Shown here piece by piece: positions 3,075 to 64,000 of a stretch of 64,000 bases of DNA. Each line of letters begins with the position of its first letter. Position 1 is the stretch's first letter. The position numbers were made by a program, and so were the translations under genes. The DNA comes from a virus, in the IMG/VR virus record IMGVR_UViG_3300042869_000676, positions 11,628 through 75,627 of that record; one strand, given 5' to 3'. The notes beneath the pieces were generated by a model that did no database searches, had not been told where the DNA came from, and saw nothing but the letters and a program-made list of their open reading frames with translations.

Positions 3075-3149
3075 GTCCTTATCGTATAACGGATAATACA
3101 AGGCTCTTCTAAAGCCTCAATGAAAGTTCGATTCTTTCTGGGGACACCA
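3075..3149 (+). tRNA. tRNA-Arg(TCT)
   Basis: Acceptor GTCCTTA/TGGGGAC, anticodon arm AGGCT-CTTCTAA-AGCCT, GTTCGATTC T-loop, encoded CCA. Confidence 0.9.
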
Positions 3150-3151
3150 TC

Positions 3152-3224
3152 GGGCAGATAGCTTAGTGGTTAAAGCAAAGAACTCATAATTCTGTGATCG
3201 GGGGTTCAAGTCCCTCTCTGCCCA
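3152..3224 (+). tRNA. tRNA with CAT anticodon (Ile2 more likely than elongator Met)
   Basis: Acceptor GGGCAGA/TCTGCCC, loop CTCATAA, GTTCAAGTC. The G1-C72 pair excludes an initiator. No encoded CCA. Confidence 0.85.
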
Positions 3225-3238
3225 TTTCTTTAGAGACA

Positions 3239-3360
3239 AAAGGTGAACCACTTATCTCTTAATACTAAAAGACGAAAGCTGAACTAGATAATACTTAATA
3301 ACGAAAGGTGAACTACTTAATACGTAATAACGAAAGGTGAATGCGTTAATAAGTAATAAT
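3239..3360 (+). repeat. four degenerate 29-36 bp repeats with core AAAGGTGAA
   Basis: Cores at 3239, 3275 (AAAGCTGAA), 3304 and 3333. Two more at 6095 and 6130. Confidence 0.8.
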
Positions 3361-3366
3361 AAAAAC

Positions 3367-3466
3367 AGGGGTAGGTAGGGGTAGGTAGGGGTAGGTAGGG
3401 GTAGGTAGGGGTAGGTAGGGGTAGGTAGGGGTAGGTAGGGGTAGGTAGGGGTAGGTAGGGGTAGGT
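3367..3466 (+). repeat. (AGGGGTAGGT)10 tandem array
   Basis: Ten perfect 10-mers read directly. Confidence 0.95.
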
Positions 3467-3502
3467 GAATTGAGATTGGTTCTCAGTCTCAACGGTGGAG
3501 CA

Positions 3503-3532
3503 GAAAAAACCCGCCCTTTTCGGGGCGGGTCG
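3503..3532 (-). terminator. intrinsic terminator of the DUF932 gene
   Basis: ACCCGCCC-TTTTCG-GGGCGGGT stem with a T-run on the minus strand. Identical to 7497-7526. Confidence 0.85.
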
Positions 3533-4584: not shown

Positions 4585-4613
4585 TTGACAACGGTGTTTT
4601 ATTCTGGTAAAAT
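4585..4613 (+). promoter_or_regulatory. near-consensus sigma70 promoter with no downstream ORF
   Basis: TTGACA-N17-TAAAAT with extended TG. Predicted start about 4619-4620, at the G-rich repeat. Confidence 0.7.
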
Positions 4614-4618
4614 AAAAC

Positions 4619-4670
4619 AGGGGTAGGAAAATTTTGATTAGGGGTAGGTAGGGGTAGGGGTAGGAAAATT
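4619..4670 (+). repeat. mixed AGGGGTAGG array
   Basis: Four GGGGTAGG cores with GGAAAATTT spacers. Confidence 0.9.
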
Positions 4671-4688
4671 TGTTCCACGTGGAACAAA
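4669..4688. promoter_or_regulatory. parS-type palindrome TTTGTTCCACGTGGAACAAA
   Basis: Perfect 20-bp palindrome. The 16-bp core TGTTCCACGTGGAACA matches the bacterial chromosomal parS consensus. Confidence 0.65.
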
Positions 4689-4940: not shown

Positions 4941-5219
4941 TTAGTTTTTTTGTTTTATGTATTTCTCCATCTCGTCCCGAATTTCGTCGGGCATGAAGCA
5001 AGAAAAGTATTTTTCAGAACTAGATCCTTTCCAGTCCCAGATTGAGCAGTCGTGGTTTTGACCATCTAATTCCGCTGTGAAATACCAGACGGCGCAACAT
5101 TTTCCATCTATGCTCGCAGTAGGTTGAAAGCCGAGAGCATTTGAAATTTCGTCGATGGTGAAGCCAAAGATAGTTCCGGTTTTGTAATTGTTTCCGATTT
5201 CTGCGGGTGTGATTCTCAT
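4941..5219 (-). CDS. hypothetical protein
   Basis: 92 aa. ATGA overlap with the upstream gene. Confidence 0.7.
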   Translation of the reverse strand: MRITPAEIGNNYKTGTIFGFTIDEISNALGFQPTASIDGKCCAVWYFTAELDGQNHDCSIWDWKGSSSEKYFSCFMPDEIRDEMEKYIKQKN

Positions 5220-5653
5220 TTGTAAAAAATATGATTTTCGATTGTAACTGTTGCAAGCATTTTTTTATTCCAAGATGGATTTATTTTTGTCGTGTGATAA
5301 AACTGTGCGTTTTTCGTGTAATTAGTGGAGCCAAGATTTTGAGCAATTTTGAGAGCGTTTGACCATTTCTTGTGTTTCTTTGCTTTGTTGATCTCAGCTT
5401 CAACATCTTTGCCGTTCCAACAAGAGAACTGTTTGCGCTGCAAACAAACTTGCATTGGCGAAAGTTTGCGCGAGATTGAACGGTTGTAAATCACTTCGGC
5501 AACAGCAGACATTGCGCGAAAATCGCGCTCGCCGCCAGCCTCGGCAATCAAAGTTGCGGCGACAATCTCAGTTGCGCTGACTGTTACAACCGATTTGCTG
5601 TGCAATGAGTTCAGCCCAGAAAAAAACGCGAGGAGAAGGCAAAGGGATTTCAT
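5216..5653 (-). CDS. SleB/Hydrolase_2-family cell wall hydrolase with signal peptide
   Basis: EAGGE, AVAEVIYNR, QFSCWN, FYHT and IENHIFY motifs. Hydrophobic N-terminus. Confidence 0.85.
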   Translation of the reverse strand: MKSLCLLLAFFSGLNSLHSKSVVTVSATEIVAATLIAEAGGERDFRAMSAVAEVIYNRSISRKLSPMQVCLQRKQFSCWNGKDVEAEINKAKKHKKWSNALKIAQNLGSTNYTKNAQFYHTTKINPSWNKKMLATVTIENHIFYK

Positions 5654-5732
5654 TTTTGTTGAGGTGTTGAATGGTTTGGTAACGGGAAAAGTTGTTTGCG
5701 ATAAAGATTTCAGCGAGTTCGTATTCGTTCAT
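5568..5732 (-). CDS. possible 54-aa protein overlapping the hydrolase start
   Basis: ATG at 5732 after an A-rich leader; MNEYELAEIFIANNFSRY...QRN; TGA at 5568-5570. Confidence 0.4.
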   Translation of the reverse strand: MNEYELAEIFIANNFSRYQTIQHLNKNEIPLPSPRVFFWAELIAQQIGCNSQRN

Positions 5733-5740
5733 TTTTTTTG

Positions 5741-5762
5741 AGGGGTAGGGGTAGGAAAATTT
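5741..5762 (+). repeat. short AGGGGTAGGGGTAGGAAAATTT unit
   Basis: Same unit as the 6164 array, squeezed between two ORFs. Confidence 0.85.
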
Positions 5763-5994: not shown

Positions 5995-6163
5995 GGCTAA
6001 AAACTATTTTTTTTTCGTGGTGGTTGCAAGTTTTTTTTTAGATTTATTTTTTATTTTTTGAGAAAAAAGCTTGACAAGAGTTTCGGCAAATAGTAAAGGT
6101 GAATGAGTTCTGTTCTAATAACAAACATGAAAGGTGAACGTGTTAATACCTAATAACAAATCT

Positions 6164-6327
6164 AGGGGTAGGAAAATTTTTAGGGGTAGGGGTAGGAAAA
6201 TTTTTAGGGGTAGGGGTAGGGGTAGGAAAATTTTTAGGGGTAGGGGTAGGAAAATTTTTAGGGGTAGGGGTAGGAAAATTTTTAGGGGTAGGGGTAGGGG
6301 TAGGAAATTTTTAGGGGTAGGGGTAGG
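6164..6327 (+). repeat. [(AGGGGT)1-3 AGG AAAATTTTT] compound array
   Basis: Seven G-blocks separated by six A3-4/T5 spacers. Confidence 0.95.
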
Positions 6328-6362
6328 CGTTTTGAGATTAGGTCTCAACTTCAATAAACGGC

Positions 6363-6421
6363 GTGGAACATTTCGGCACCGTGGAACATTTTCGTGGAAC
6401 ATTTCGCGCAGCGTGGAACAT
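6363..6421 (+). promoter_or_regulatory. four CGTGGAACATTT boxes (parS half-site-like)
   Basis: GTGGAACAT at 6363, 6381, 6394 and 6413. Confidence 0.75.
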
Positions 6422-6508
6422 TTTGGCGTGCCAACCTCGTTTTTTTAGCAAAGATTTTTTTTTATTTTTTAGTCGTTTTTTTTCGTTGGGTGTGGTTTAT
6501 TTCCTGCG

Positions 6509-7293: not shown

Positions 7294-7325
7294 GGGGCGG
7301 GCCTAGCGGCTCGCCTCTTTTTTTT
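7294..7325 (+). terminator. intrinsic terminator
   Basis: GGGGCGGGCC-TAGC-GGCTCGCCTC followed by T8. Confidence 0.85.
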
Positions 7326-7374
7326 GTGCGCGTGTGCGCGTGTGCGCGTGTGCGCGTGTGCGCGTGTGCGCGTG
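7325..7374. repeat. (TGTGCGCG)6 alternating purine-pyrimidine tract
   Basis: 50 bp of strict Y-R alternation. Confidence 0.95.
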
Positions 7375-7380
7375 ATGCGT

Positions 7381-7493
7381 AGGGGTAGGGGTAGGGGTAG
7401 GGGTAGGGGTAGGGGTAGGGGTAGGGGTAGGGGTAGGGGTAGGGGTAGGGGTAGGGGTAGGGGTAGGGGTAGGGGTAGGGGTAGGGGTAGGGG
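7381..7493 (+). repeat. (AGGGGT)18-AGGGG telomere-like array
   Basis: 19 GGGG tracts at 6-bp period. Confidence 0.95.
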
Positions 7494-7496
7494 CAC

Positions 7497-7526
7497 GAAA
7501 AAACCCGCCCTTTTCGGGGCGGGTCG
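7497..7526 (-). terminator. intrinsic terminator
   Basis: 30-bp exact copy of 3503-3532. Confidence 0.85.
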
Positions 7527-8227: not shown

Positions 8228-8402
8228 CACTATAGCGAATTCTATAGTGGCGCGAGGAAATGATATAGCGTTGTATCAAAAATGATATAGCACTATATCA
8301 AAAAGTATATAGCGCTATATACACCCCCCGCCCTTATATAAAAAAGTATATAGCGAATTGTATAGGGCGCGGGGGGGGATGGTAATTCCTCACTCTACCA
8401 TC
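8228..8402. repeat. phased TATAGC palindrome array with C/G-tract inverted repeat (candidate origin or packaging/terminus site)
   Basis: 18-bp palindromic units at 8261, 8283 and 8305 (22-bp period). Related units at 8228 and 8346. CCCCCCGCCC...GGGCGCGGGGGGGG. Confidence 0.75.
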
Positions 8403-30796: not shown

Positions 30797-32773
30797 ATGG
30801 GAGTTTACTATCTAGGAGCAAGTCCTCAACAAGTTGATTTTCAAATCGTTGATGTTGATACTGGCGTTTTCTTAAACGCGCAGAGTGGCATAGCTTATAG
30901 TTCAACTCGCTTAAGCGGGCAGCTTTCATCTTATTACGCAGACGCATCTAATCTAACTGGAACTGCAAATTTACCTTCTGGTGTTTTTGGTACATTAGAT
31001 GTTGATTCGTTTATTAGAAATGTATCAACCAAGTTCGTTGATTATACAGTTTCTACTGCTGACGATGTTATTATCTCAAGTTCAGCTGATCCAAAGACAA
31101 TTAGTTTAATCTACGCTTCTGGCAACGCTGGAAGACAGTTTGTAATCAAAAATAAAGGAGCTGGAACTGTTACAGTTAACGCTTCTGGAGTTGGTCAGAT
31201 TGATGGCGCAGATACTTATTCTTTGCCGCAATATCAATCTATATCTGTGTTTAGCGATGGATCAACTTGGAACGCTGATGCTGGTAAGCAAGGCATTCAA
31301 GGTATTCAAGGCTTGCAGGGCGTACAAGGAACTCAGGGTCCACAGGGAACTCAAGGCGTTCAGGGTACGCAAGGCGTTCAAGGAACTCAAGGCGTTCAGG
31401 GTACGCAAGGTTTACAAGGCCCACAAGGAACGCAGGGTGTTCAAGGTACTCAAGGTTTGCAAGGCCCACAAGGAACTCAAGGAGTTCAAGGTACACAAGG
31501 CGTTACTGGTTCGCAAGGCTCAACAGGCGCAACTGGAGCACAAGGAACTACTGGAGCTACAGGCGCGCAGGGAACTACTGGTACTAACGGCGCTACAGGT
31601 TCACAAGGCTCAACAGGAGCTACTGGCTCGCAAGGCGCTCAAGGAACGCAAGGAAGAACAGGCGCGCAGGGGACGACAGGCGCAACAGGTAATACTGGTA
31701 ATACCGGTTCGCAAGGTGCAACAGGTTCAACTGGATCTACAGGCGGTACAGGCGCTACAGGCGCGCAGGGGGCGACAGGCGCAACAGGTAATACTGGTAA
31801 TACTGGTTCACAAGGCGCGACTGGCTCAACTGGATCTACAGGATCAACTGGCGCAACAGGAGCGCAGGGAATTTCTGGCGCAACAATAGACAATACAGAA
31901 AGAACTTTATCCCGTTTATCTTTCACGGGTGTTGGTGGAAATTCTAATGTAACTTTTGGAGCAAATCACTATTCAATTGGTCAAGCTGGAGGAGGTTGGG
32001 ATTATCCATATCCAGATTTAATTATTGGTTACCATACAGGTATTCGCATTGGTGGGTACTGGAATTACGGCGGTACAAGATTCTATAATGATTCACCAAC
32101 TTCTAATGGTGGTGCCGAAGCTGAATTAATGTCGATAGGTAATGGAGATAATAACGTAAGAGTTCAAAATACAATTTATGCCGCAGTTTTTTCCGATATT
32201 AACAATACTGCATATTATTTAGATCCAAATTCAAACTCCAATTTTGCTGGATCTATAAGCGTTAGCCAAAATAACGCTTCGGGTGGAGGCATCATTCTCG
32301 CTGATGATGGCGACATTGTTGATTTGAATGACGCTTACTGTTCAATGCGATTTACCTCTGGAGTTCGTATTTTTAGCGCAAATAGAAGTGGTAGCGCGGT
32401 TATTAGTCTAGGAAGTAACGGAGCAATCGTAGCGAATTCTAATATTACCGCTTATGGAAGCGCTTCTGATATTAGATTAAAAGAAAATATTGTTCGTATT
32501 GATAACGCATTAAATAAGGTAATGCAGATAAATGGTTATTATTTTAACTATACTGGTAAAACTGAACGTATGGTTGGCGTTGTCGCGCAGGAAATTGAAC
32601 CAGTTTTAAAAGAAGTCGTATATGAATACGAAAATATCGAAACAAAAGAAAAGAACAAAGCTGTTTACTACGGAAATATCACAGCTCTTCTTATCGAAGC
32701 GATGAAAGAGCAGCAAGCTACCATCGAATCACTAAAAGACCGCATTTTAGTGCTGGAAAACATTAAAAACTAA
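30797..32773 (+). CDS. collagen-like fibre with a C-terminal peptidase S74 intramolecular chaperone
   Basis: Gly-X-Y run at about 31283-31880; [16 protein letters not shown] and [10 protein letters not shown]. Confidence 0.85.
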
Positions 32774-32791
32774 TTTAAAATATATAAATTT

Positions 32792-33151
32792 ATGGCTATC
32801 ACATATACATGGAAAGTAACAGGTATCAAGGTAAAAGACGAAGGCGCAAATAAGAACGCTATCGTTCAAACCTACTGGAAAAAAATCGGTACAGACGAAA
32901 ACGGCAACGTTGGAGAATTCTCTGGCGCTACTCCTTTCACAAGCGCGAACGTTCCTGACGGACAGTTCGTTGCATTTGAAACTCTTACTGAAGCTAATGT
33001 TATCGCGTGGGTTCAAAGTGTCGTAACTGGCAGCTACGAAGAGCACGTTAACGAGCAAATCGCCAAGCAACTCGCTAAGAGCGATCCAGTAGAAATCAAA
33101 ATGCCTTGGGATACTGGTGTTGCCCCTTCTGGCTCTGCTCCAACCCCATAA
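32792..33151 (+). CDS. small fibre-associated protein
   Basis: MAITYTW, F..F..LTE..V..WV and MPW motifs seen next to phage fibres. Confidence 0.65.
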   Translation: MAITYTWKVTGIKVKDEGANKNAIVQTYWKKIGTDENGNVGEFSGATPFTSANVPDGQFVAFETLTEANVIAWVQSVVTGSYEEHVNEQIAKQLAKSDPVEIKMPWDTGVAPSGSAPTP

Positions 33152-33266
33152 GTTAGGTTGAGTTTATATAGCAGCTATGTTTTAGCCTTAAATGGTTAAA
33201 ATATAGTTCGTTTTATGCTCAATTTAACTGTAAATCTAGTTATCGGATTAAGGTAACTATAATAAC

Positions 33267-36200
33267 ATGGGTAAATACTACTTAGGTTCTCAATCAGGCG
33301 CGCAGGTAAACTTCTCAGTAGCAGATGCTACTGGAGTTATTAGCGACTTGAACTTAAGCGGTCTTTATCTTAGCGTAACTGGTAAAGCCGCCGATTCTGC
33401 GAAACTTAACGGAACTGGCGCTGACTATTATCGAAATGCTGGTAACTTAACTGGCTATATATTTGTTGATACAACAGGAATCACAAATGATATTACTGGT
33501 TTATTAGATCTTCCTAATAACTACCTTTCAATTACTGGTAAAGCTGCCGATTCTAATCTCTTAGATGGATATGATAGCTCTTATTTTAGAGATGGAAGTA
33601 ATATTACAGGAAATGTAGTATTAAGCGGCGTTTTTACTGGTCTATTTAGCGGCGCAATATCTCATACTGATTATGTTGATTTCCATACTGGAACAACGTT
33701 TGGTTCACTTCCAGCTCGTTTAAAATGGAACGAAGAAGATGGAACAATTGACCTTGGATTAAAAGGCGGAAACGTAGTTCTTCAAGTTGGTCAAGATGCT
33801 GTTTCTTATGTATCAAATGCAGAAGCGACAACTCTTAATAAAGGTGAAGTTGTTTACTTATTCGGCGCTCATGGAGATCGCGCTTCTGTAAAAAGAGCTT
33901 CTAATTCTACTGAAGCTACATCAAGCAAAACATTAGGTGTTGTATTAGAATCTATTGCTCCAAACGGTGTTGGATTTGTAATGTCTAACGGTGTTGTTGA
34001 AGGGCTTTCTCTTGGAAGTTTTCAAGCTGGTGATTCTGTTTGGCTAGGCTCAACACCCGGCACTTTTACTGCAACTAGAGCGCTCGCTCCAAGTCATCTT
34101 GTTTTCATTGGTGTTATAGCTAGAGCAAATAACGGTAACGGTCAATTATACGTTAAAGTTCAAAACGGTTTTGAACTAAACGAAATTCATGACGTAAAAA
34201 TTACTGGTTTAGCTAACAACGATTTCTTAATTTATAATAGCGGCTCTGGTCTTTGGGGAAATAAACAAGCTGATGCTTCAATTATTGTTAACACTCCGTA
34301 CAGCGGAATTTCTTCAACTAATGTTCAAGATGCAATCAACGAATTAGAAGATGAAAAACTTTCAATCACAGGAAAAGCTGTTGATTCAGATTCTTTAGAC
34401 GGAAATGATTCAACGTATTATAGAAACGCCGCAAACTTAAGTGGTGTTGCTACTTTACCTTCTGGCGTTTTCAATTATCTTAATGTTACTGGAACTCTTG
34501 ACGCCGATTCTTTTGTTAGAAACGTAAATGTAAAAACTGGTCACTATACTTTAACAACTAGTGATGATAATATTGTTTTTGATTCCGCTACTCCATATAC
34601 TGCCACTTTAATCTCAGCTTCTTCTAATGTTGGTCGCCAATTTGTTATCACAAACAAAGGATCTGCGCAAATTACTGTTGACGCTACTTACAATGGGCAA
34701 ATTGATGGAGCTAATGCTTATTACTTAGAACAGTATAAGACTCTTGTTTTAATTAGTGATGGCGCAACTTGGAATTCTGTTGGTGGTAGCCAAGGCGTTC
34801 AAGGCTCTCAAGGATTACAAGGCGTTCAAGGAACTCAAGGCGTTCAAGGAACGCAAGGAGTTCAAGGAACGCAAGGTGTTCAGGGCACACAAGGTATTCA
34901 AGGCACTCAAGGAGTTCAAGGTACGCAAGGAATTCAAGGATTGCTTGGTATTCAAGGAGCCGAAGGCGCGCAAGGCATTCAAGGAATTCAAGGTGTTCAA
35001 GGAACAACTGGTATTCAAGGATCTGCTGGTTATATCGGCGCAGACGGTTCTCAAGGCACTTTTGGTTCGCAAGGCACACAAGGAACTCAAGGAATTCAAG
35101 GTCTTCAAGGACTTGAAGGCTCACAAGGAACTCAAGGAGTTCAAGGCGTTCAAGGCGTTCAGGGAACTCAAGGCGTTCAAGGCGTTCAAGGATTGCAGGG
35201 CGTTCAAGGAACACAAGGAATTCAAGGCACTCAAGGCTTAGAAGGCTTACAAGGCGTTCAAGGCACACAAGGAGTTCAAGGAATTACTGGCGCTCAAGGA
35301 GCAACAGGCTCACAAGGAGCGCAGGGAACTCAAGGTATTCAAGGCTTAGAAGGTGCGCAAGGTACACAAGGAGTTCAAGGAACACAAGGAATTCAAGGAT
35401 TAGAAGGACTGCAAGGCGTTCAAGGCACACAAGGAATTCAGGGCGTTCAAGGCACTCAAGGCGTTACTGGTTCTCAAGGTGCAACAGGCTCACAAGGCAC
35501 TCAAGGCACTCAAGGAGTTCAAGGAATTACTGGATCACAAGGCGCACAAGGTACTCAAGGCGTTCAAGGCACTCAAGGTGTTCAAGGCGACAGAGGTATT
35601 GAAATTTCTACTTCTGCAACTGCTCCAGTTTCTGCTGAAGCTAATGATCTTTGGTGGAATTCTTCTGACGGTAATTTAAATATTTATTATAGCAGCAATT
35701 GGGTAGAAGCTTTCTCTGCTATCGCTGGTCCACAAGGAACAACTGGTGGACAAGGTGTAACAGGCGCACAAGGAACTGCTGGAACATTCGGCGGCGCTGC
35801 TTTCGATTATACTTTCAGCGACTCAACAACTGACGCTGACCCAACATCTGGTAAACTTCGTTTAAATAACGCTCTATTCTCTTCTGCTACTGAATTATAC
35901 ATTAGCCAAACAGACGATTTAAGCGTTTCTATATACAATTTCTTACAGACCATTGATGATTCTACTTCTGCAATCAAAGGTCACTTCTCGATCACTAGCA
36001 AAACAACTCCAGCTAATTCTGTTTTATTTAGTATCACTGGAAGTCATACTCATGCGACAAATTACTTTAAAGTTCCAGTAAGTAAATTATCTGGCGTAAA
36101 TTCTTTCTCAAACAACGAAGACATTGTAATTACTTTTGCTAGAACTGGTGACGTTGGTGACGCTGGCGCTCAAGGTACACAAGGGTTGCAAGGCGTTCAA

Positions 36201-39200
36201 GGGTTGCAAGGCGTTCAAGGGTTGCAAGGCGTTCAAGGGTTGCAGGGCGTTCAAGGAATCCAAGGAGAAACTGGTTCGCAAGGAGCAACTGGTTCTCAAG
36301 GCGTTCAAGGGTTGCAGGGCGTTCAAGGATTGCAGGGATTAGAAGGTGCTCAAGGCGTTCAAGGCGTTCAAGGAACGCAAGGAATCCAAGGAGAAACTGG
36401 TCTACAAGGAGCAACTGGTAGCCAAGGAACACAAGGAGTTCAAGGAATCACTGGTCTGCAAGGCACGACGGGATCACAAGGAACTCAAGGCGTTCAAGGA
36501 ACTATTGGTTCTCAAGGAACTGCTGGTTACATTGGCGCTGATGGCGCACAAGGAGCAACTGGAACAACTGGCGCTCAAGGATCGCAAGGAATTCAAGGCG
36601 TTCAGGGTGTTCAGGGAGTTCAAGGCACTCAAGGTGTTCAGGGCACGCAAGGACTTCAAGGCGTTCAAGGATTGCAAGGCGTTCAAGGCGTTCAAGGCGT
36701 CACTGGCTCGCAAGGCGCTAGCGGCTACGTTGGTTCTGATGGCGCGCAAGGCTCCACAGGCGCGCAAGGCATTCAAGGCTTGCAAGGTGTTCAAGGTCTT
36801 AAAGGAACACAAATAACAACATCTGACTCTGCGCCCGGCTCTCCAACCGTTAATGATCTTTGGTGGAACTCCACATCTGGTACATTGATGATTTATTACT
36901 ATGATGGCGATACTTTTCAATGGGTAGATGCTGCTGCTGGCGCAGTTGGTTCGCAAGGTGCAACAGGTGCTCAAGGTGCAGTTGGTGCGCAAGGCGCAAC
37001 TGGTTCACAAGGCGCTCAAGGAACTCAAGGAGTTCAGGGAGCTAACGGCTCGCAAGGAACAACTGGAGATACTGGTGCTCAAGGCTCAACTGGCGCTCAA
37101 GGCGTTCAAGGCATCACTGGTACGCAAGGTATCACTGGTCAAACAGGCGCTCAAGGAGCAACTGGCGCACAAGGAACTTCTGGAACAAACGGTTCACAAG
37201 GAACAACTGGTAGCCAAGGAGCTACTGGTACACAAGGAACAGTAGGAGCACAAGGAACAACTGGTGCTCAGGGCGTTCAAGGAACTTCGGGAGCTTCGAT
37301 TCTTGGTACAGCGAATACTTGGGCAAATACAAATGCGTTTACGACGTTGAGCGCGAGCAGTTCAATCAGCGGTGCAGTTGGAGCATATTTTCCTTCTATT
37401 TCGCCCGCGCCATCTGGCTCTAATCTAGAAGTAGGTTATGACTCCGGCAGCAACATTGGTGTGTTACAGGCTTACAATCGCACAGGCTCTGCTTGGCGCG
37501 ATGTCGGAATGTATGGGTTGACTTCAAAACACTTTGCCAGCGGTTCCTTGATTGGCACATTCTCCTCCACCGGCCTCGCCGTGACCGGGGCGTTGTCGTC
37601 TACCACAGGAGCCAACTTTGCGACGAGCAGCGGCAACGTCGGCATTGGGACGAGTTCGCCTTCTGGATATTTGGCAAACAAACTTGTCATAAATACAGGC
37701 ACTGATTACAACAATGGCATAACTATCGCTAGTGCATCAAATAGAAATGGCTCAATCTGGTTTGGTGATGGAACAACGGGCAATGAGTCGTATCGTGGCG
37801 GCATTGATTATCAACACACCACAGACACATTGTATTTATACGCAGGTGCTTTAGGTAATTTCACACTCACCTCCACTGGCGTCGCCGTGACTGGAACAAT
37901 TAGCGGTACTGGAGCAAATACATTTGTTTCAACCACAGCAAGTGGTAACTGGGGATTTGTTCACAGTAATTTTTATGCGGGTCAGGGTGGAAATGTATAT
38001 AGCAAAGGTTTCAGCAGCGGAGCCATAGGCATCTTTAATGGAAGTGTCACTGCCCAAGATATTTATTTGTACAATCAGAACGACCCAGGCGCCGGTATTC
38101 TTGTATTAAAAGCCAGCGGTAACGTCGGCATTGGGACGACGAGTCCTACGTCTAAACTGACAACATATTATACAGGAATTTACGACAGTAATACTACTCG
38201 GTTTGTTGACATTGCTGGTGAGTTTTTTGGAACTGATCCATCTTCAGCCACTAACGCGGGAGCTTTTACTGGCATAAGAATGGGTAACATTACGGCTGGA
38301 AAATACGCCATGATGGGCGCGGTTTCTGAAGATAATTTAGGTTTTTCAAGAGCGAATGGTTTATCTTTTTGGACATCTCCGCAGGACACTGCGCCAATCG
38401 AGAGGTTGCGTATTAGCAACGCTGGTAACGTCGGCATTGGTACTGCGAGTCCTAGCGCAAAACTTGAAGTTAATGCCGGAACTGGAACTCCTGCATTTAA
38501 TAACGGAATTGCAATAGTAACAGGTAATAGTACATTTACTGATGGTCACGGTGGCATACTTCAGTTTCAAAATGAAGATGTGATAACGGCAGCAGTTAGA
38601 GGAATAAGAGAAGCTGGTTGGGGTTCTGCGATAGCTCTATATACCCATAATACAAGTTCCGGAAATACATTTGGCACTACTGTCGTAGAGAGAATGCGCA
38701 TCGACAGCAGCGGCACTCTGCTGGTGGGGACGACAAATACTGATCCAACATTTAACCGTGTTAATGGCACAAACATTACGAGCGATGGAAGAATTTATGC
38801 GCGAGCTACTGGTTCTTGGGACTTAGGTGCCAATAGCTCTACTCCAATTCATATTGCATTTTATACAGACAACGGCTCTGCGCGGGTAAATGCTGGCTCA
38901 ATTAGTTCGTCTGGCAGCACCACAACCTACGCAACCAGTTCCGACTATCGCCGCAAATCTAACGTCCAAGACCTTACTGGCAGCGGCGCGTTTATCGACG
39001 CTCTAAAACCGCGCACGTTCGATTGGGATACTGGCGACAAGGGCGTTGGTTTCGTTGCTCACGAATTTGCTGAGGTATCTCCTTCGTCTGTTAGTGGCGA
39101 AAAAGACGCCGTAGATTCTGACGGCAAGCCTGTCTATCAAGCCATGCAAGCCTCCTCATCTGAAGTTATCGCCAACCTAGTTGCAGAACTTCAATCCCTA

Positions 39201-39233
39201 CGCGCCCGCGTAGCCGCACTCGAAACCAACTAA
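33267..39233 (+). CDS. large collagen-like fibre (1988 aa) with GNVGIGT repeats and an S74 chaperone
   Basis: Three G-X-Q blocks, two APxxx..NDLWWNS domains, GNVGIGT repeats, SSDYRRK and GFVAHE. Confidence 0.85.
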
Positions 39234-39278
39234 TATACCTATTAGAAACTAACAGAAATTAATGTAAAATAATATAGT

Positions 39279-42002
39279 ATGGCCGTTCCAATTTCATTTC
39301 CCGCAAACCCGACTGTAAATCAAGTCTATACTAACGCCCAAAACAAAAATTGGCGCTGGAACGGTACGTCTTGGAAAGCTTTCAACAGCTCTTTCTTTGA
39401 TACTACAAATGCGGACAATATTGTAACTGGAACACTTGCTAATGCGCGAATTCATTCAGTATTAACTGGAAAGACATATAACGGAATTTCGCCAACAACT
39501 CATACCACCGGGTTCTCTGTTGCTGGTGGAAGTGAAACTAGCAAAACTTTAACTGTTCGCAACACTTTAGCTATTCAAGGAACTGATAATGGTTATTTGG
39601 ATATTGGAGCTGGTGGAGTTCTTAAGAGCGCCGCTTTTACTGATGCTTCGCAAGGAACTACAGGCGCGCAGGGTACGCAGGGCGTGCAAGGCACTCAAGG
39701 AGTGCAGGGAACTACTGGTATTCAAGGGTCGCAGGGCGTTCAGGGGTTGCAGGGAGTTCAGGGTACTCAAGGTATCACTGGCTCGCAAGGTGCGACAGGA
39801 TCGCAAGGAACTGGTGGAACAATCGGCGTAAATGGCGCTCAAGGTTCAACTGGAGCTACTGGTTCGCAGGGTACTACAGGAACAACAGGAACAACAGGAG
39901 CTACAGGCTCGCAAGGTGCTCAAGGAACGCAAGGAAGAACAGGCGCGCAGGGAACAACAGGAACTACTGGTAATACTGGTAATACTGGTTCGCAAGGCGC
40001 GACAGGCTCAACAGGTAATACTGGTAATACTGGTTCTACTGGCGCAACTGGCGCAACAGGCGCACAAGGAACTTCGGGTGCAACAATTTTAGGTAACACT
40101 CAAGCTTGGAGTGCGGTAAATTCTTATAATTATCTTAGTGCAAGTGGAATTGCAAATAGTTCGTTTAGTATTGGCACTTCCGTACTTGGTGGCGTTCATA
40201 TTAATCCAGGCGGTGGGACTGGTGGAGGAAATTCCTACGAAGGCGCAATTACTTTCGGCGTTGGTAACAATGCAGCTGCTCAAGCTGGTATTTACGTAAG
40301 TAATAACGGCAGTGAAGGTACTCATATGGCTTTTGCTACTACGGACAGTTACGCAACTGGCCCGCAGATTGGTTTGAGAATTATGAATACTGGTTATTCA
40401 TATTTTCCAAGAAACTATGTTGAATCTGCTGGAAGTTTTCGCGCTCCATTATTTTATGATAGTAATAATACAAGTTATTATTGTGATCCAGCGAGCGGAA
40501 CTAATCTTAATGGAACATTTGTAAATAATGGCGGAACAACAATGACTGGTGGTTGGAATCGCAGCATGCTTTTGTCTGCCACGTTTCCAGTTCTTGTATT
40601 TGGTTCTAATGCTACAAAATTTTCGGGAATAGGTGTTGATTACAGTAGTGCCGCAGCAGGAATGTTTTTCTGGGTTAACGGTTCCAGCAGTGATATTAGC
40701 GGAACTGGAAACGTAGCTCTTGGTATTAATACTGGTAATTATGTAACAGCTTATGGTTCATTCCGCGCACCAATTTTCTATGACAGTAATGATACAGGAT
40801 ATTATTGCGATCCAGCCAGTACCAGTAGATTAAATGCAATTACCTATACTAATATGTATAGTTCGGCTAGTTCGGCTTACGGGTTTTTTGGAAATAATGT
40901 TTATACAGATACTGTAAATTCTGGCGCTGCTGGTGATCCATTGGAATTATGTTATCATACAGGAGCTTATACTACTACATCTGGTAGTATGCGAGCGCCA
41001 CTTTTTTATGATAGCAGTAATACTTCATATTATTGTGATCCTGCATCTACATCAGTATTGTATAGAACATTAACTTCTCATGTTTCTCTAGATTCAACGC
41101 GTGTTGTTGCTCCAGGAGGTGGATCATATACAACTCAATCATCCTCTATTACTGGTGCGATTAAAATTAAACTTCCAACAGCCAAGCTTAATTCAAATAC
41201 GATGTTGCGTTTTACTGTTAAAATTTACCAGTATAGCACGGGTTTATGTCATGAATTTAATATTGGTGGATATAATTACAATGGTGGTCAATGGTATAAT
41301 GTATTTGCAACTCAAGTTAGCGATGGATCGACTTCTCCATATACCGTAAGATTTGGTTATGATTCGACTGCAAATTGTATTTGGATAGGAGAAACTGGCA
41401 GTTCTTGGTATTATCCTCAAGTTTTCGTAACCGATTTTCAAGCAGGATATTCAGCAATTAATAGTGATTGGGCTGACGGTTGGGAAGTCAGTTATGTAAC
41501 TTCTTTCAATTCAGTAACTGAATCTAGAGTAGCTTCAATGGCGTTCACAACCAATAATGGTTCTGGAACAACATTATATGCTACTATTTTTTACGACGCT
41601 AACAATACCGCATATTATGTAGATCCAACTGATAGTTCCACTTCTATTCGTTGCGCTGGGAATATCACAGCTTATTACTCCGACGAACGCTTAAAAACCC
41701 ATTTAGGTAAAATTGAAAACGCAGTTGATAAAGTCAAAACATTAGAAGGTTTCTATTACGAAGCTAACTCTATCGCTCAATCTTTTGGCTATAAAGTTAA
41801 ACGTGAAGTTGGCGTAGGCGCACAAGCTGTTCAAAAAGTTCTTCCCGAAATCGTTTCAGAAGCGCCAGCTTCTGCGAAATACCTTACGATTGATTACTCA
41901 AAGCTAGCTCCTCTTCTCATTGAAGCAATTAAAGAACAACAACAACAGATTGAACACCAACAACTCCAAATCGAAGAACTAAAAGCGTTAATTAAAAAAT
42001 AA
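39279..42002 (+). CDS. collagen-like fibre with FRAP.FYDS..T.YYCDP repeats and an S74 chaperone
   Basis: FP..P..NQ.Y N-terminus, Gly-X-Y run, four FYD..N..YY.DP repeats, SDERLK. Confidence 0.85.
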
Positions 42003-42008
42003 TTTAAA

Positions 42009-45000
42009 ATGGCCCTTAATTTCCCAACATCACCAGAACTAAATCAAGTTTATACCAGCGGCACCCGGAGTTGGCGTTGGGATGGCTCGTCTTGGGTCGC
42101 AAACAATAGCGTAACGAATATATTAGGCTATATCCCGGTTAATAAGGCGGGCGACACTATGAGTGGCGGCTTAAATGTGCCAAATGTTAACGCTGTTACT
42201 GTTACGGCGAATTCTAGTGGATTTAGCATCGCTGGTGGTAGTTCTTCGTCAAAAACTTTAACTGTTTCAAATGGAGTAACTATTGCTGGAACAGATGGTT
42301 CAACTTTAAATATTGGCGCTGGTGGAACTCTTTTAAGTGGCGCTTTTCAAGCTTCTTCGCAAGGAACAACTGGCGCGCAAGGCGTGCAAGGAACAACTGG
42401 TTCGCAAGGCGCTCAAGGAACAGATGGAGTACAAGGAAACACAGGCGCACAAGGCACACAAGGACTTACTGGACCTAATGGCATACAGGGCGCAACTGGA
42501 ACTCAAGGCTCTACAGGAACTCAAGGAGCAACTGGCGTTCAAGGTTCAACTGGTGCTCAAGGAATTCAAGGAATTACTGGTTCGCAAGGTGCAACTGGAA
42601 CGCAAGGAGCAGTAGGTTCAACAGGCGGAACAGGAGCAACTGGCTCTACTGGCGTTCAAGGTTCAACTGGCGCTCAAGGAACTTCGGGCGCATCTATTTT
42701 AGGAACTAATAACACTTGGACTGGAACAAATGCGTTTACTTATCCGTCAGGCACCGCAATTATTTCATTAGATAGTACAGCTTCTTTAGGTACTGGTACT
42801 GGACTCAGCCTTGCTTGGAGATCGTATTCAAATTCGGGAAATAGTATTCTAGCAACAACAGCTGCTATGAGAGGAGCTAGAGAAAACTCTACTTCTGGTA
42901 ATTATGCTGGTTTATTTTCTATATATACCACAGATTCTGGTGGATCTAATCTTGAGCGTTTTCATATTAATAGTAGTGGAAATGTTGGTATTGGTACGAC
43001 GAGTCCTGCTGCAAAACTCCATGTCAATGGTGGTGAAATTTACGTTCAAAGCACCGACTATGGTCGCGTAATGTTTGTTCGTGGTAGTACTAGCATTTGG
43101 GCTGTTGGACCAAGAAACACGGACGATCTTTACATTCGCCGCGAAGGTGGGTCGGCAAATGTGATTTTTGATGGTGGCAACGTCGGCATTGGCGTAACCG
43201 CACCAACAGCTTCCTTACAGGTTGCTTCGTCTTCTGCTCTTGCTGCCGGTAATCCTTCAATTATTTTGCAAGGCTCAAATAACACAGAGCGGATTAGTAT
43301 CCGCAGCACATCCGCGTCTGTATTTGTTGCTCAATTTGCCAATGGCACACTTGCAAGCCCAACGGCTGTAACCACTGGCAACTTTCTTGGTAGCTACCAA
43401 TTTGGCGGATATGCTGCAACGCTTTGGACTAGGGGCGCACAAGTCTCTGGTTCTGCCGCTGGCACATGGACAGACACAAGCACCCCAGCAAATATAGTAT
43501 TTGAAACAGTTCCCTCAGGCTCTACAGGATTTTTAGAACGTATGCGTATCGACAGCAGCGGTAACGTCGGTATTGGAACGGCAAGTCCTGCAAATAGATT
43601 ATCGGTCGCTGGTTCAGGTACATCGCTATTTCACTTTTTAGGCGAAGGTAATACATATTATGTATTACGTTCTAGAAATAGTGCAGATAGCGCGTTTGCT
43701 GATTTAGTATTAAGAACTGATGATTTTGTAATAGAAGCAGGAACTTCTGGAGCAGTAACCGAACGTCTTAGATTAGGAGATACTGGTAATTTTAATATAG
43801 ATTCAGGAACATTTTTTGTTGACGCTCTAAATGACAGGGTCGGCATTGGTACGACGAGTCCTGCTTATAAATTACATCTCAGTGGAGGTTCTGATACTCG
43901 TATTCAAATAGACGCAACCTCTACTCAAGGATTTTATTTTACAAAGGCAGGAACTAATAACGGAACATTTCGCGTAGATACTGACGGTAATTTTGAGTTT
44001 TACACCAAGACGGTTTCCCAAGCAATGGTTCTAACGGCTGCTGGCAAAGTCGGCATTGGGACGACGAGTCCCGGAGCAACATTAGACGTAAACGGAAACG
44101 GACGTTTTATACAAAACGCCGCAGCGACGACAGGAGCAATTATTCTTCGTCAAGCCGCAGCAGATGCGGAAGGTTCATTCATTCAGTGGGTCAATAATGC
44201 GAACACCGTTGAAAAAGGTTGGTTTACTGTAGATACATCTAGCAACATGAAATTTGCTACGGTTTCTACCGAGCGGATGCGTATAACTTCGACAGGCAAC
44301 GTAGGTATTGGGACTAGCTCACCTGGTAACTTTAGATTGAATGTCACATATAGTACAGGTAATTATGCGCCTGTAGAATTTAGCGGACCAGGAGTAGCGG
44401 CTTGGGGTATTGGATTAGTTGTGCGAACAACTGGCGGCACTGATGGTGCGGCAATTTTATTAAGAAACCGTGACGTAAAAAACTGGCAAATTCGTGGTGA
44501 AGCTAGCGGAACAGGATTTCATATTACAGAAGATGGTGGTGATGGAAATTACGGTAGCGGATTCGGTACTGCAAGATTGACGATTGCTGCTGGCGGCGCT
44601 GTCAATATTCCCGGTTCTCTTTCCAAAGGTTCTGGCTCATTCCGCATTGAACATCCACTACCTTCAAAATCCGAAACCCACGAACTTGTTCACTCTTTCA
44701 TCGAAGGTCCACAAGCTGATCTTATTTATCGCGGTAAAGCAACACTAGTAAACGGTGCTGCATCCGTGAATATTGACACCTCCGCCACTATGACAGAAGG
44801 CACATTTGAAGCTCTCTGCCGTGAAGTTCAATGTTTCACTACTAACGAAAGCGGTTGGACTGCTATTCGTGGAAAAGTTACAGGCAATATTCTCACAATT
44901 CAAGCTCAAGATTCTACCTGCACAGACGAAATTTCTTGGATGGTAATTGGCGAACGCCAAGACAAACATATGATGGATACTGAATGGACAGACGAAAATG

Positions 45001-45077
45001 GTAAAGTAATTGTTGAGCCTTTAAAACCAGTTAAAGAATTAGCAAGCGATAGTGAAACAACAGAAACTAATTCTTAA
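42009..45077 (+). CDS. collagen-like fibre with multiple (GN)VGIG repeats
   Basis: N-terminus paralogous to 39279. Six VGIG repeats. C-terminal [12 protein letters not shown]...HSFIEGP domain. Confidence 0.85.
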
Positions 45078-61251: not shown

Positions 61252-64000
61252 ATGAGCAAGAGAATAACAGAACTTCCTTTGGCGACTCAGTTAAACAATG
61301 AGGATCAATTCATATTTTATAGCAATTCTGACAAAGAAACGCAAAGAATCAATGCTGGAATTTCTCTTAACGTTATCGCTAATAATCTGCCCAGCGTATT
61401 AAAGGCAACAACAAATGCTAGCTTAGGTATAGCTAATGCTGCCTTGGCTGACGCAAAAGCGGCTGAAGCTCTTGCGAACGCGGCAACCGCACAAGCATCA
61501 GCAGAAGGAGCGCAAACATCCGCAGACGGAAAAGCTAAAGTTTATTATCAGTCATCGGCTCCAACTGGCGGAACTTATAACACTGGAGATATTTGGTATG
61601 ATACTGATGATAATTATAAAATATATGTAAGATCAGGATCATCTTGGGTTGCTAGTTTTGGGCCAATGCTTAAATTAGATGGAAATAATAATATTTCTGG
61701 CCTTTTAAAAGCAGATGGAACAGATAAAAGTTTTGTTTTGGTTGCTGACAATTTTCAAGTATGGAATGGAGTTAGCGCTGAAGTTCCATTTGAAGTTGTA
61801 GAAGATCCATCAAATCCTCCTAATCAAGTAGTAAGAATTAAAAACGCTCAAATTCAAACTGTTGATGCCGGAAAAATAACTTCTGGTTTTTTATCTTCTC
61901 AGGTTCTTGAATTAGCCAACGCAAACGCTTATTTACAATCAAGTTCTTTCATTGAAACTTGGACTTCTGGTAAAGTTTTTAGACAAAAAAGTTTAGGCAA
62001 AGCTACTCCTAGCGATCAATTGCAGTGCAAGGTTGAGCAGGCAAATGGAACGTTTATTGTTTACGATTGTCTTTCTACTCACACATCGAGTGGAGCTTCG
62101 TTTCCGGGTGTTGGCGGGCTTTGGGCGCAGACTTCTACGCAGCCATCCGCGCAATCTATTGGCTTTAGAATTGTTGGCAATGGTCAAGCTGAATTTAATG
62201 GAGTGTCTGTAAGAGGAGATGTTTTAGCGTTGACTGGTTATTTTGGTGATAATAAAAACGTAACTAAAATTGGAGCTAATGGATTAACTATCGGAAATCA
62301 AGGATATATTAAGTCAGACGGAATCACCTATGCTGCAACAGCTTTTTCTGGTAATGGATTTTTCTTAGGTAACACACAGGGAGAAGGACAAGAAAATGCT
62401 TATCAATTTTATATTGGAAACGCGGCTACGAGTAAATTTTTAAGATGGGACGGAACTAATTTAGTTATCAACGGTAGAATAGCTACTGGAAGTGTATTAG
62501 GTGATTCAAATTCAGGCAGCTCTGTTAATAGCCAAGGCGGTTTAATTATTGGATCTACAATAGGAATTAGAAGAAACGTAGATGATAATGTATTATCAAT
62601 AACAGGAGGAACCGATAACTGGGGCGCAGTTGGCGCTGATAATGGCGCAGGACAAATAGATTTGGTTGGCAAAAACAGTCTAATAGGAAATGCTGGAGTT
62701 GTTCAATTAATTGGCGGAAAGGCTCCTACTGGAGACATTCTTTTAAGAACTTGGTTAGGAACTGAAAATTATTTTAATGACTGCTTAACCGCCAGTAGAA
62801 ATGGGTCTGTAGGTATAAATGATACAGCGCCATCTAATTCAAATGGAATTAAACTTGACGTTTACGGAAGCATGAGGATAAGAGAAGGTGTTGTTTATTC
62901 AACTTATTCAAGTCCATTTAATGGATATACTGTTGCTCTTAACGATGGAGCCAATAACATTAGATTTAAATATGACGATGGTTTATACGCTAAGATTAAT
63001 GATAGTGAGCCTATATTAATTGGCGAAGGCGGAGAAGGCAATCAAGGCAATCAGGGCGAACAAGGCTTTCAAGGCTATCAAGGCAATCAGGGCGAACAAG
63101 GCGAACAAGGCGAACAAGGCGAACAAGGCGAACAGGGCGATCAAGGCTTTCAAGGCTATCAAGGCTATCAAGGCGAACAAGGCGAACAAGGCGAACAGGG
63201 CGATCAAGGCTTTCAAGGCTATCAAGGCTATCAAGGCGAACAGGGCGAACAGGGCGAACAGGGCGAACAGGGCGAACAGGGCGAACAAGGCGAACAGGGC
63301 AATCAAGGCTTTCAAGGCTATCAAGGCTATCAAGGCGAACAGGGCGAACAAGGCGAACAGGGTGATCAAGGCTTTCAAGGCTTTCAAGGCTTTCAAGGCT
63401 ATCAAGGCTATCAAGGCTATCAAGGCGAACAGGGCGAACAGGGCGAACAAGGCGAACAAGGCGAACAGGGCGATCAAGGCTTTCAAGGCTTTCAAGGCTA
63501 TCAAGGCTATCAAGGCGAACAGGGCGAACAGGGCGAACAAGGCGAACAAGGCGAACAGGGCGATCAAGGCTTTCAAGGCTATCAAGGCTATCAAGGCTAT
63601 CAAGGCGAACAGGGTGAACAGGGTGATCAAGGCTTTCAAGGCTATCAAGGCTATCAAGGCTATCAGGGCGAACAAGGCGATCAAGGCGCAGCTGGCACTA
63701 ACGGTACTAACGGTACTAACGGTACCAACGGTTCACAAGGCGATCAAGGCTATCAAGGCTATCAAGGCAATCAGGGCGAACAAGGCGATCAAGGCGCAGC
63801 TGGCACTAACGGTACTAACGGTACTAACGGTACCAACGGTTCACAAGGCGATCAAGGCTATCAAGGCTATCAAGGCTATCAAGGCTATCAAGGCAATCAG
63901 GGCGAACAAGGCGATCAAGGCGCAGCTGGCACTAACGGTACTAACGGTACTAACGGTACCAACGGTTCACAAGGCGATCAAGGCGCAGCTGGCACTAACG
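61252..64000 (+). CDS. tail-tip/fibre protein with a C-terminal collagen-like repeat, 3'-partial (absent from the ORF track)
   Basis: ATG at 61252 (MSKRITELPLA...). No in-frame stop in the stretches I read; frame continues into G-X-Q repeats from about 63022 to the window end. Confidence 0.85.
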   Translation, partial: MSKRITELPLATQLNNEDQFIFYSNSDKETQRINAGISLNVIANNLPSVLKATTNASLGIANAALADAKAAEALANAATAQASAEGAQTSADGKAKVYYQSSAPTGGTYNTGDIWYDTDDNYKIYVRSGSSWVASFGPMLKLDGNNNISGLLKADGTDKSFVLVADNFQVWNGVSAEVPFEVVEDPSNPPNQVVRIKNAQIQTVDAGKITSGFLSSQVLELANANAYLQSSSFIETWTSGKVFRQKSLGKATPSDQLQCKVEQANGTFIVYDCLSTHTSSGASFPGVGGLWAQTSTQPSAQSIGFRIVGNGQAEFNGVSVRGDVLALTGYFGDNKNVTKIGANGLTIGNQGYIKSDGITYAATAFSGNGFFLGNTQGEGQENAYQFYIGNAATSKFLRWDGTNLVINGRIATGSVLGDSNSGSSVNSQGGLIIGSTIGIRRNVDDNVLSITGGTDNWGAVGADNGAGQIDLVGKNSLIGNAGVVQLIGGKAPTGDILLRTWLGTENYFNDCLTASRNGSVGINDTAPSNSNGIKLDVYGSMRIREGVVYSTYSSPFNGYTVALNDGANNIRFKYDDGLYAKINDSEPILIGEGGEGNQGNQGEQGFQGYQGNQGEQGEQGEQGEQGEQGDQGFQGYQGYQGEQGEQGEQGDQGFQGYQGYQGEQGEQGEQGEQGEQGEQGEQGNQGFQGYQGYQGEQGEQGEQGDQGFQGFQGFQGYQGYQGYQGEQGEQGEQGEQGEQGDQGFQGFQGYQGYQGEQGEQGEQGEQGEQGDQGFQGYQGYQGYQGEQGEQGDQGFQGYQGYQGYQGEQGDQGAAGTNGTNGTNGTNGSQGDQGYQGYQGNQGEQGDQGAAGTNGTNGTNGTNGSQGDQGYQGYQGYQGYQGNQGEQGDQGAAGTNGTNGTNGTNGSQGDQGAAGTN
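63022..64000 (+). repeat. 9-bp-unit coding minisatellite (GGC NNN CAR, GGT ACT AAC)
   Basis: Encodes GEQ/GYQ/GFQ/GDQ/GNQ/GTN triplets. Confidence 0.9.

Follow-up and report, generated by a model that had tools for sequence, protein, structure and literature searches.

The locus described here raises the question of whether an ordered group of repeats that occurs twice in the DNA of an uncultured phage is one functional element or a set of parts with different origins. In the window, by which we mean the whole stretch of 64,000 nucleotides that was analysed (bases 11628-75627 of a single 75.6-kb virus contig, estimated completeness ~52%), the same three-part order is found at 3238-3492 (module A) and 6094-6348 (module D): 29-36-nt direct repeats of the AAAGGTGAA type, a GGGGTAGG array and a TTGAGA..TCTCAA hairpin. 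An earlier note had placed this recurrence at 3239-3492 and 6095-6348, and it is confirmed there.

The contig carries genes for a large terminase and a portal-like protein, for long collagen-like fibre proteins and HNH endonucleases, and for two tRNAs; its GC content is 40%. Many uncultured relatives are present in IMG/VR, and DNA of the phage was detected in 24 lake-water DNA runs; a search for a cultured relative found none. The modules sit in 8 kb of DNA where the transcription units are short and run in both orientations; the genes there include those of a clamp-loader-like AAA+ protein, DUF1281_C, DUF932, an endolysin, GP88 and HNH. ParB_N and sigma-70 region 4 were not found in the contig, that is, in about 52% of the phage genome. 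Elsewhere in the window, several very long ORFs at 30797-45077 and 61252-64000 encode collagen-like Gly-X-Y repeats with a periodicity of 9 nt; they are probably fibre proteins, and the end of the contig falls within one of them. Near the start of the window, a stretch of ~490 nt without a long ORF (1760-2248) carries GC-rich hairpins 3′ of a repeated promoter-like box, GGTATTGAC, and has no Rfam match. Within it, 2122-2207 is 89-91% conserved in relatives whose adjoining DNA is ~80% identical.

Two modules and five arrays

Exact copies of AAAGGTGAA start at 3239, 3304, 3333, 6095 and 6130, and a variant, AAAGCTGAA, at 3275. Scored with a weight matrix of the 29-mer, five of these sites reach 30-41 bits and the sixth 16.9 bits; no other site in the 75.6-kb contig exceeds 7.0 bits, and shuffled genomes give at most 11.9. 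A seventh AAAGGTGAA, 229 bases 5′ of the window and within a nuclease ORF, is a chance match. A TTGACA box lies at 6077-6082, just 5′ of the module D 29-mers. The 29-mer was considered as a general promoter and rejected, there being no more copies in 75.6 kb. Like iterons, which lie at one or two loci, the 29-mers are phased direct repeats present at two loci only, beside A/T-rich DNA, and are conserved among relatives in the lineage, although their unit is longer than that of typical iterons. Because they are confined to the two clusters, we consider the 29-mers to be most likely iteron-like binding sites for a phage protein. An AAA+ ATPase with a C-terminal winged helix (797-1735), which gives RuvB_N/RuvB_C and clamp-loader matches, is a candidate binder because of its initiator-like architecture. 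No Rfam family matches the phage module region.

In both modules the array is closed within a few bases by the TTGAGA..TCTCAA box, as the earlier note had observed (3466 to 3470 and 6327 to 6332), and nowhere else in the 75.6-kb contig does this inverted repeat occur. The two copies are weak stem-loops of 9-5-9 and 6-5-6 geometry. The first lies between array A and the minus-strand terminator, and the second between array D and the GTGGAACAT boxes. The flanks of the two modules do align, with identical bases in 47 of 70 columns on the left and 22 of 36 on the right, and the tandem unit between them differs, being the 10-mer AGGGGTAGGT repeated ten times in one module and a compound of TAGGGG and A4T5 in the other; on both points the earlier description holds.

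The modules contain only two of the five G arrays (Table 1). The word GGGGTAGG occurs 49 times against 0.53 expected, every copy on the + strand (49/49), and the copies are confined to five intergenic loci that together lie within 4.1 kb. Arrays B, C and E have neither the 29-mers nor the hairpin, which flank only A and D. The octamer GGGNAGGG has 28 exact copies in arrays B-E, again all on the + strand (28/28), and none in array A, which reads GGGTAGGT. These copy numbers, where they concern perfect arrays of 100-165 nt, come from a short-read metagenome assembly and may be inexact.

Table 1. Positions of the repeats and neighbouring signals in the window.
Feature	Position	Strand	Remarks
tRNA-Arg(TCT) and tRNA-Met	3075..3224	+	directly 5′ of module A; ARAGORN, Rfam
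Four 29-36-nt direct repeats, GAAAGGTGAA-N-TTAATA-NN-TAATAAY	3238..3366	+	TRF period 29
G array A, (AGGGGTAGGT)x10	3367..3466	+	perfect; GGGGTAGG core present, no exact GGGNAGGG
Hairpin A, TTGAGATTG-GTTCT-CAGTCTCAA	3470..3492	.	9-bp stem including one G-T pair, 5-nt loop; -5.0 kcal/mol as DNA
Intrinsic terminator of minus-strand DUF932 gene	3503..3532	-	
Sigma-70-like promoter, TTGACA-17-TGGTAAAAT	4585..4613	+	predicted; 11/12 plus TG; identical in L299
G array B	4619..4664	+	without 29-mers, without TTGAGA hairpin; identical in L299
Perfect palindrome TTTGTTCCACGTGGAACAAA	4669..4688	.	14-nt core GTTCCACGTGGAAC at 4672-4685
G array C	5741..5755	+	9 nt 5′ of start codon of minus-strand ORF 5568-5732; sense strand C-rich
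Two 29-35-nt AAAGGTGAA repeats of module D	6094..6162	+	
G array D, (TAGGGG)1-3 blocks with A4T5 linkers between	6163..6327	+	165 nt
Hairpin D, TTGAGA-TTAGG-TCTCAA	6332..6348	.	6-5-6; -3.7 kcal/mol as DNA
Four GTGGAACAT boxes	6362..6423	+	3′ of module D; half of parS palindrome
(TGTGCGCG)x7, strictly alternating pyrimidine-purine tract	7325..7380	.	between GP88 terminator and array E
G array E, (GTAGGG)x19	7379..7493	+	perfect; between two convergent terminators

The arrays adjoin transcription-unit ends. For both A and E, the array is situated just past an identical 30-nt minus-strand terminator, the copy of the DUF932 terminator at 7497-7526 being 100% identical to the original at 3503-3532. 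The predicted start of the promoter at 4585 is the first base of array B, and on the 3′ side of this array stand the parS-type palindrome and then a terminator. The GTGGAACAT quartet beside module D has a counterpart at 441-502, and the boxes of both quartets are spaced 18/13/19 nt; their assignment as DnaA-box-like sites was dropped, GTGGAACAT being half of the parS palindrome. The alternating tract next to array E is Z-DNA-prone, and in strain L299 it is longer and more degenerate. As judged by motif match, arrays A and E form quadruplex motifs over their full length (at least four runs of three or more G, loops of 1-7 nt), B and D do so within blocks only, and no further non-coding site in the contig matches.

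Comparison with related phages

One close strain, L299, is represented by a metagenome contig of 4,962 bases that is 88-94% identical to the phage (~93%), starts within array A and ends within array E. Sites A, B, D and E of this strain are occupied by arrays, and its two hairpins are unchanged. Array B is identical, array C is absent and array D is restructured, with 85 nt in L299 vs 165 nt in the phage (78 gap columns), whereas the flanks of module D are 93-97% identical. The proposal that the central array varies independently of its flanks is thus borne out. Site C of L299 holds a cassette of ~330 nt in place of the array; at its other insertion, near 5210, there is no array. The 380-nt intergenic stretch that contains the promoters, array B, parS and the terminator differs from L299 by one mismatch, compared with a mean divergence of 6.2%.

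More distant relatives retain only part of the module. In G001 and G002, at ~80% identity, the 29-mers are kept in five copies; at ~70% identity, G006 has one copy and G007 has variant forms. Neither a GGGGTAGG array nor a TTGAGA hairpin is found at the matching sites in G001, G002, G006 and G007, and other motifs take their place, namely TATAGC palindromes, CCGGGCCNGGCCCGG arrays and GTGGAACA arrays. The linkage of flank, array and box that the earlier note expected to find in related genomes is therefore present in one close strain (module D as a whole; module A as the array end and hairpin only, the contig starting inside array A) but absent at ~80% and ~70% identity. Several other repeats were seen in passing. 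The GTGGAACA arrays of the relatives are larger than the GTGGAACAT quartets of the window. Phased palindromes of the TATAGCGCTATA type lie at 8258-8355 of the window, and the same type of motif stands in place of the G array in G001, G002 and G006. In the 70% relative G007, a gap between convergent genes (L343:8830-9130) holds a C-rich cluster whose reverse complement contains GGGTAGGGGAGGGTAGGG; its polarity is opposite to that of the window arrays.

Because relatives at 70-80% identity keep only the 29-mers, we take the 29-mers to be old and the array and hairpin to be recent. The arrays are not essential, since relatives at 80% identity do without them, and as the 29-mers predate the arrays, the common three-part order may partly be a coincidence. 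On this comparison, the module is not an obligate three-part unit but a mosaic whose parts have different histories. What stands of the defined element described earlier is the recurring order; its parts are separable, since relatives have 29-mers but no arrays, and arrays B, C and E are bare. The accompanying statement that the arrays are not a product of slippage is wrong as worded, since the aligned sequences clearly indicate that the arrays change by slippage while the flanks stay fixed. What is non-random in the arrays is, by its sequence, the seed, which matches a repeat of one bacterial clade.

Scans of IMG/VR added little to this comparison. The pattern (GGGGTA)3GG gave at least 117 matches, and of those inspected almost every one was a coding linker rich in proline/threonine. 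The array-hairpin junction, the A/T-linked unit and the 10-mer unit, when sought there, returned chance matches or none, and no arrays were found in the IMG/VR neighbourhoods of GP88 and DUF932. One unrelated large virus, a 138-kb contig, carries non-coding GGGGTAGG-type repeats interleaved with GGTAACGTATTACGTTACTATTA repeats (L046:3880-4210).

A repeat and a polar octamer of freshwater Opitutae

The A/T-joined 21-mer GGGGTAGGGGTAGGAAAWTTT was searched in one genome per species, 185,579 species in all, and gave two matches, one of which is in Opitutae bacterium BS6 and reads GCAAAGGTGAATTTAGGGGTAGGGGTAGGGACAGGGGTAGGGGTAGGAAATTTTT there. The BS6 genome contains 22 copies of the 14-mer GGGGTAGGGGTAGG, compared with 0 for the reversed control. 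This 14-mer is present in 19 of the 41 nearest relatives of BS6, with up to 29 copies per ~2-Mb genome, and none of 300 other genomes sampled across Verrucomicrobiota has more than one copy; phyla beyond Verrucomicrobiota were covered with the 21-mer only. Of 25 motif clusters in 391 kb of BS6, 21 lie between genes. The clusters of this clade typically present a C-rich sense strand 1-60 nt 5′ of a start codon, which is also how array C is placed in the phage, or form inverted G-rich and C-rich arms. The copy number of the GGGGTAGGGGTAGG-type repeat varies between Opitutae genomes at the same locus.

At a minimum of nine loci in four Opitutae genomes, between housekeeping genes, the G motif forms the middle of a larger mosaic element, which has the order (GTGCAAAR)n-GTG, a short A/T stretch, four to five runs of the GGGGYAGGGG type, AGGAAAA..TTT and a long hairpin that starts with CAGGTCTC and includes AGGTCTC. 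This is the order of the phage modules, and the words AAAGGTG, GGGGTAGGGGTAGG, AGGAAAATTT and AGGTCTCA are common to both, the last of these being shared by phage hairpin D and the hairpin part of the bacterial element. AAAGGTGAA itself precedes the G motif in only two of the nine elements. The mosaic elements have no Rfam match and, as an interspersed family, are apparently undescribed. Examples in BS6 and its relatives are found in L391, L396, L400 and L401 (~1400-1800 of each) and at L380:980-1560. Inverted G and C arrays also flank the gene of a 23S rRNA-intervening-sequence protein beside a tRNA in Opitutae. With many intergenic copies, a fixed motif order, inverted arms and a variable copy number, the bacterial element resembles REP/BIME elements, although its sequences are unrelated to enterobacterial REP. 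The phage differs in having the G-rich arm only, in one orientation, and so lacks the long hairpins of the bacterial elements. Extending the idea of a host repeat to CCGGGCCNGGCCCGG, the GC-rich motif of the phage relatives, was rejected, as this motif is not enriched in the Opitutae clade. Two parS sites are present in each of the Opitutae genomes, and they are exactly the palindrome variant of the phage, GTTCCACGTGGAAC.

The octamer GGGNAGGG is a sub-motif of the Opitutae repeat. When all octamers with one free position were ranked without bias in the candidate host, it came out as the most strand-polar of 16,384 families. On a 481-kb Opitutae contig (G009 C1), its strand counts are 28:156, made up of 15:146 over the first 440 kb and 13:10 in the last 40 kb, which is a skew of ~91% over 440 kb. 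Along the same 481-kb span, the GC skew changes sign several times, and the polarity of GGGNAGGG is seen in genes of both strands, independent of gene strand. The next most polar family on this contig is GAGNAGGG (28:126). In Escherichia coli, GGGNAGGG is the KOPS, or architecture-imparting sequence, read by FtsK (PMC3384302; PMC2680272). KOPS are predicted from high skew and frequency, which in E. coli are 0.91 and 1 per 12.6 kb (PMC3384302); in the candidate host, the bacterium in which they were examined, GGGNAGGG shows a skew and frequency of this kind. This polarity is the behaviour expected of a KOPS-type sequence that orients FtsK, and the FtsK_gamma domain (PF09397) is present in three of three Opitutae genomes, at 90-92 bits. 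We therefore regard GGGNAGGG as a candidate KOPS of Verrucomicrobiota. An octamer this polar and frequent could instead be a Chi-type signal; RecC was not found in the candidate Opitutae host. The E. coli-type Chi octamer, GCTGGTGG, was rejected as an explanation of the arrays, its sequence being different. In the phage it is itself biased 12:1 to the + strand (12 sites, window 609 to 53550), with ratios of 7:1 and 10:1 in G006 and G007 and no polarity in the Opitutae sample; this bias may be a codon effect in Gly/Ala-rich genes.

Possible roles of the arrays

The anatomy, the comparisons with strains and relatives, the shared motifs and the polarity in the bacterial genomes are direct observations; we infer both that the Opitutae clade is the host of the phage and that some protein reads the arrays. 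The explanation that we prefer, and to which we give an even chance, is that the G arrays are a host-type polar repeat, expanded by slippage and read by a host DNA-handling protein, and that the 29-mers are a separate part belonging to the phage lineage. According to this explanation, the AAAGGTGAA 29-mers would be an old feature of an uncultured lake-phage lineage, and the G array would be a recent, strain-level addition whose core, GGGGTAGGGGTAGG, often followed by AAAATTT, matches the signature intergenic repeat of the Opitutae clade (GGGGTAGGGG). Once seeded, the motif would have grown by replication slippage into arrays whose unit grammars differ and which are still unlike between strains. 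The phage would infect a narrow clade of ~2-Mb freshwater Opitutae (Verrucomicrobiota), and the host-type parS beside array B would join the five co-oriented arrays in mimicking signals of the host chromosome. Arrays kept co-oriented suit a signal that is read directionally by a host protein; the most plausible reader would be FtsK, acting through its gamma domain, and the formation of G-quadruplexes would be a side property. A bolder form of this explanation, in which a phage of virulent type carries arrays of its host's FtsK-orienting octamer and an exact parS so that FtsK and ParB/SMC load and move or position phage DNA directionally, seems to us rather improbable.

The likeness to KOPS consists in the 28 co-oriented GGGNAGGG of arrays B-E and, in the candidate host, in the same octamer being the top polar family beside an FtsK gamma domain. 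Several observations nevertheless weigh against the preferred explanation. The host assignment comes from shared motifs only, and 48 kb of the phage gave no spacer or prophage match in 41 Opitutae genomes. The GC content of the phage is 23 points below the 63.5% of the candidate host. Chromosomal KOPS are dispersed single octamers, whereas those of the phage are tandem arrays clustered within 4 kb, of which array A lacks the exact consensus. We know of no phage that uses KOPS.

The arrays may also be neutral passengers, that is, host intergenic DNA or a chance seed that was expanded by slippage in a hyperplastic region, without function and in an accidental order. Arrays that are strain-specific, perfect, variable in length and absent from relatives at 70-80% identity are what such an origin would leave behind; the region is pieced together from genes of mobile type (HNH endonucleases, GP88, DUF932), and the copy number of the motif varies in bacteria too. 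However, all five loci are co-oriented, for which chance would give 1 in 16, sites A, B, D and E are kept despite 6-12% divergence of the flanks, and the array B region has changed at one position in 380 nt. The arrays are, moreover, longer than most host copies, though G-rich tracts are foreign to a genome of 40% GC. We judge neutrality to be a serious alternative, though a good deal less probable than the preferred explanation. Less probable again, and to our minds unlikely, is a structural role, in which transcription would trigger a G-quadruplex or R-loop at transcription-unit boundaries that blocks read-through or starts cassette-shuffling recombination. Arrays A and E are canonical quadruplex motifs and the sole non-coding ones in the contig, a Z-DNA-prone tract adjoins array E, and the strong predicted promoter starts exactly at array B and leaves the G-rich strand as the unpaired non-template. 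This geometry has been shown to be required at the pilE G4 of Neisseria, with its cis-acting small RNA (PMC3547852), but in the phage it is found at only one of five arrays, where it comes from a predicted promoter, and no other array has a convincing promoter. The proximity of the arrays to terminators, with the exact duplication of a 30-nt terminator, and the coincidence of array C with an insertion/deletion difference from L299 recall the PeSL cassettes of T4-type phages (PMC2839356), since here, too, sigma-70-like promoters and the duplicated terminator punctuate a hyperplastic region of small genes (PMC2839356; PMC4122927), and one array marks a cassette difference between strains. PeSLs, however, consist of a promoter and a stem-loop, with neither microsatellite arrays nor counterparts in host genomes; no L299 breakpoint lies between two arrays; and the potential to form quadruplexes explains neither why the core matches a clade-specific bacterial repeat nor why three unit grammars all keep GGGGTAGG.

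Action at the RNA level would account for the strict + strand polarity. G-rich transcripts would pair with the C-rich motif 1-60 nt 5′ of host start codons and disturb host expression; the proposed transcripts are an RNA of ~100 nt from the promoter at 4585, a tRNA-operon trailer that runs through array A and a GP88 leader that runs through array D. We consider this very unlikely. A predicted promoter is indeed followed by array B, two hairpins and a terminator, array A lies directly 3′ of tRNA genes on the same strand, and the sense strand just 5′ of host start codons is C-rich. However, a strong + strand terminator precedes array E, array C lacks a promoter on the + strand, there is no match to an Rfam family, and no RNA run is among the runs listed with the stretch. 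The most improbable of all, by a wide margin in our estimation, is the earlier view of an autonomous three-part element closed by a Fur/Zur/PerR-type operator. Fur-family operators have a 7-1-7 (or 9-1-9) geometry with the A/T-rich half-site TGATAAT. In its favour, the box recurs beside two arrays, only a few bases away, and L299 has it unchanged. Against this, copy D agrees by eye with the 7-1-7 consensus at only 9 of 14 positions, the two copies fold into stems that are unlike each other and unlike the operator, and they overlap no promoter. Arrays B, C and E lack the box, as do all relatives at 70-80% identity, and its AGGTCTCA recurs instead in the hairpin of the host mosaic element.

The repeat common to the phage and one bacterial clade offers a testable host prediction for a widespread, uncultured lineage of lake phages, namely small-genome freshwater Opitutae, for which we know of no cultured phage. 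The comparison has also exposed an apparently undescribed mosaic element and a KOPS-like polar octamer in Verrucomicrobiota. Even if the arrays are neutral, they would be a natural marker of DNA exchange between phage and host and a fast-evolving marker of strains. If FtsK or a similar protein does read them, the arrays would represent a new use of host chromosome-handling signals by a phage, a mimicry of host chromosome signals of a kind that has not been described for phages.
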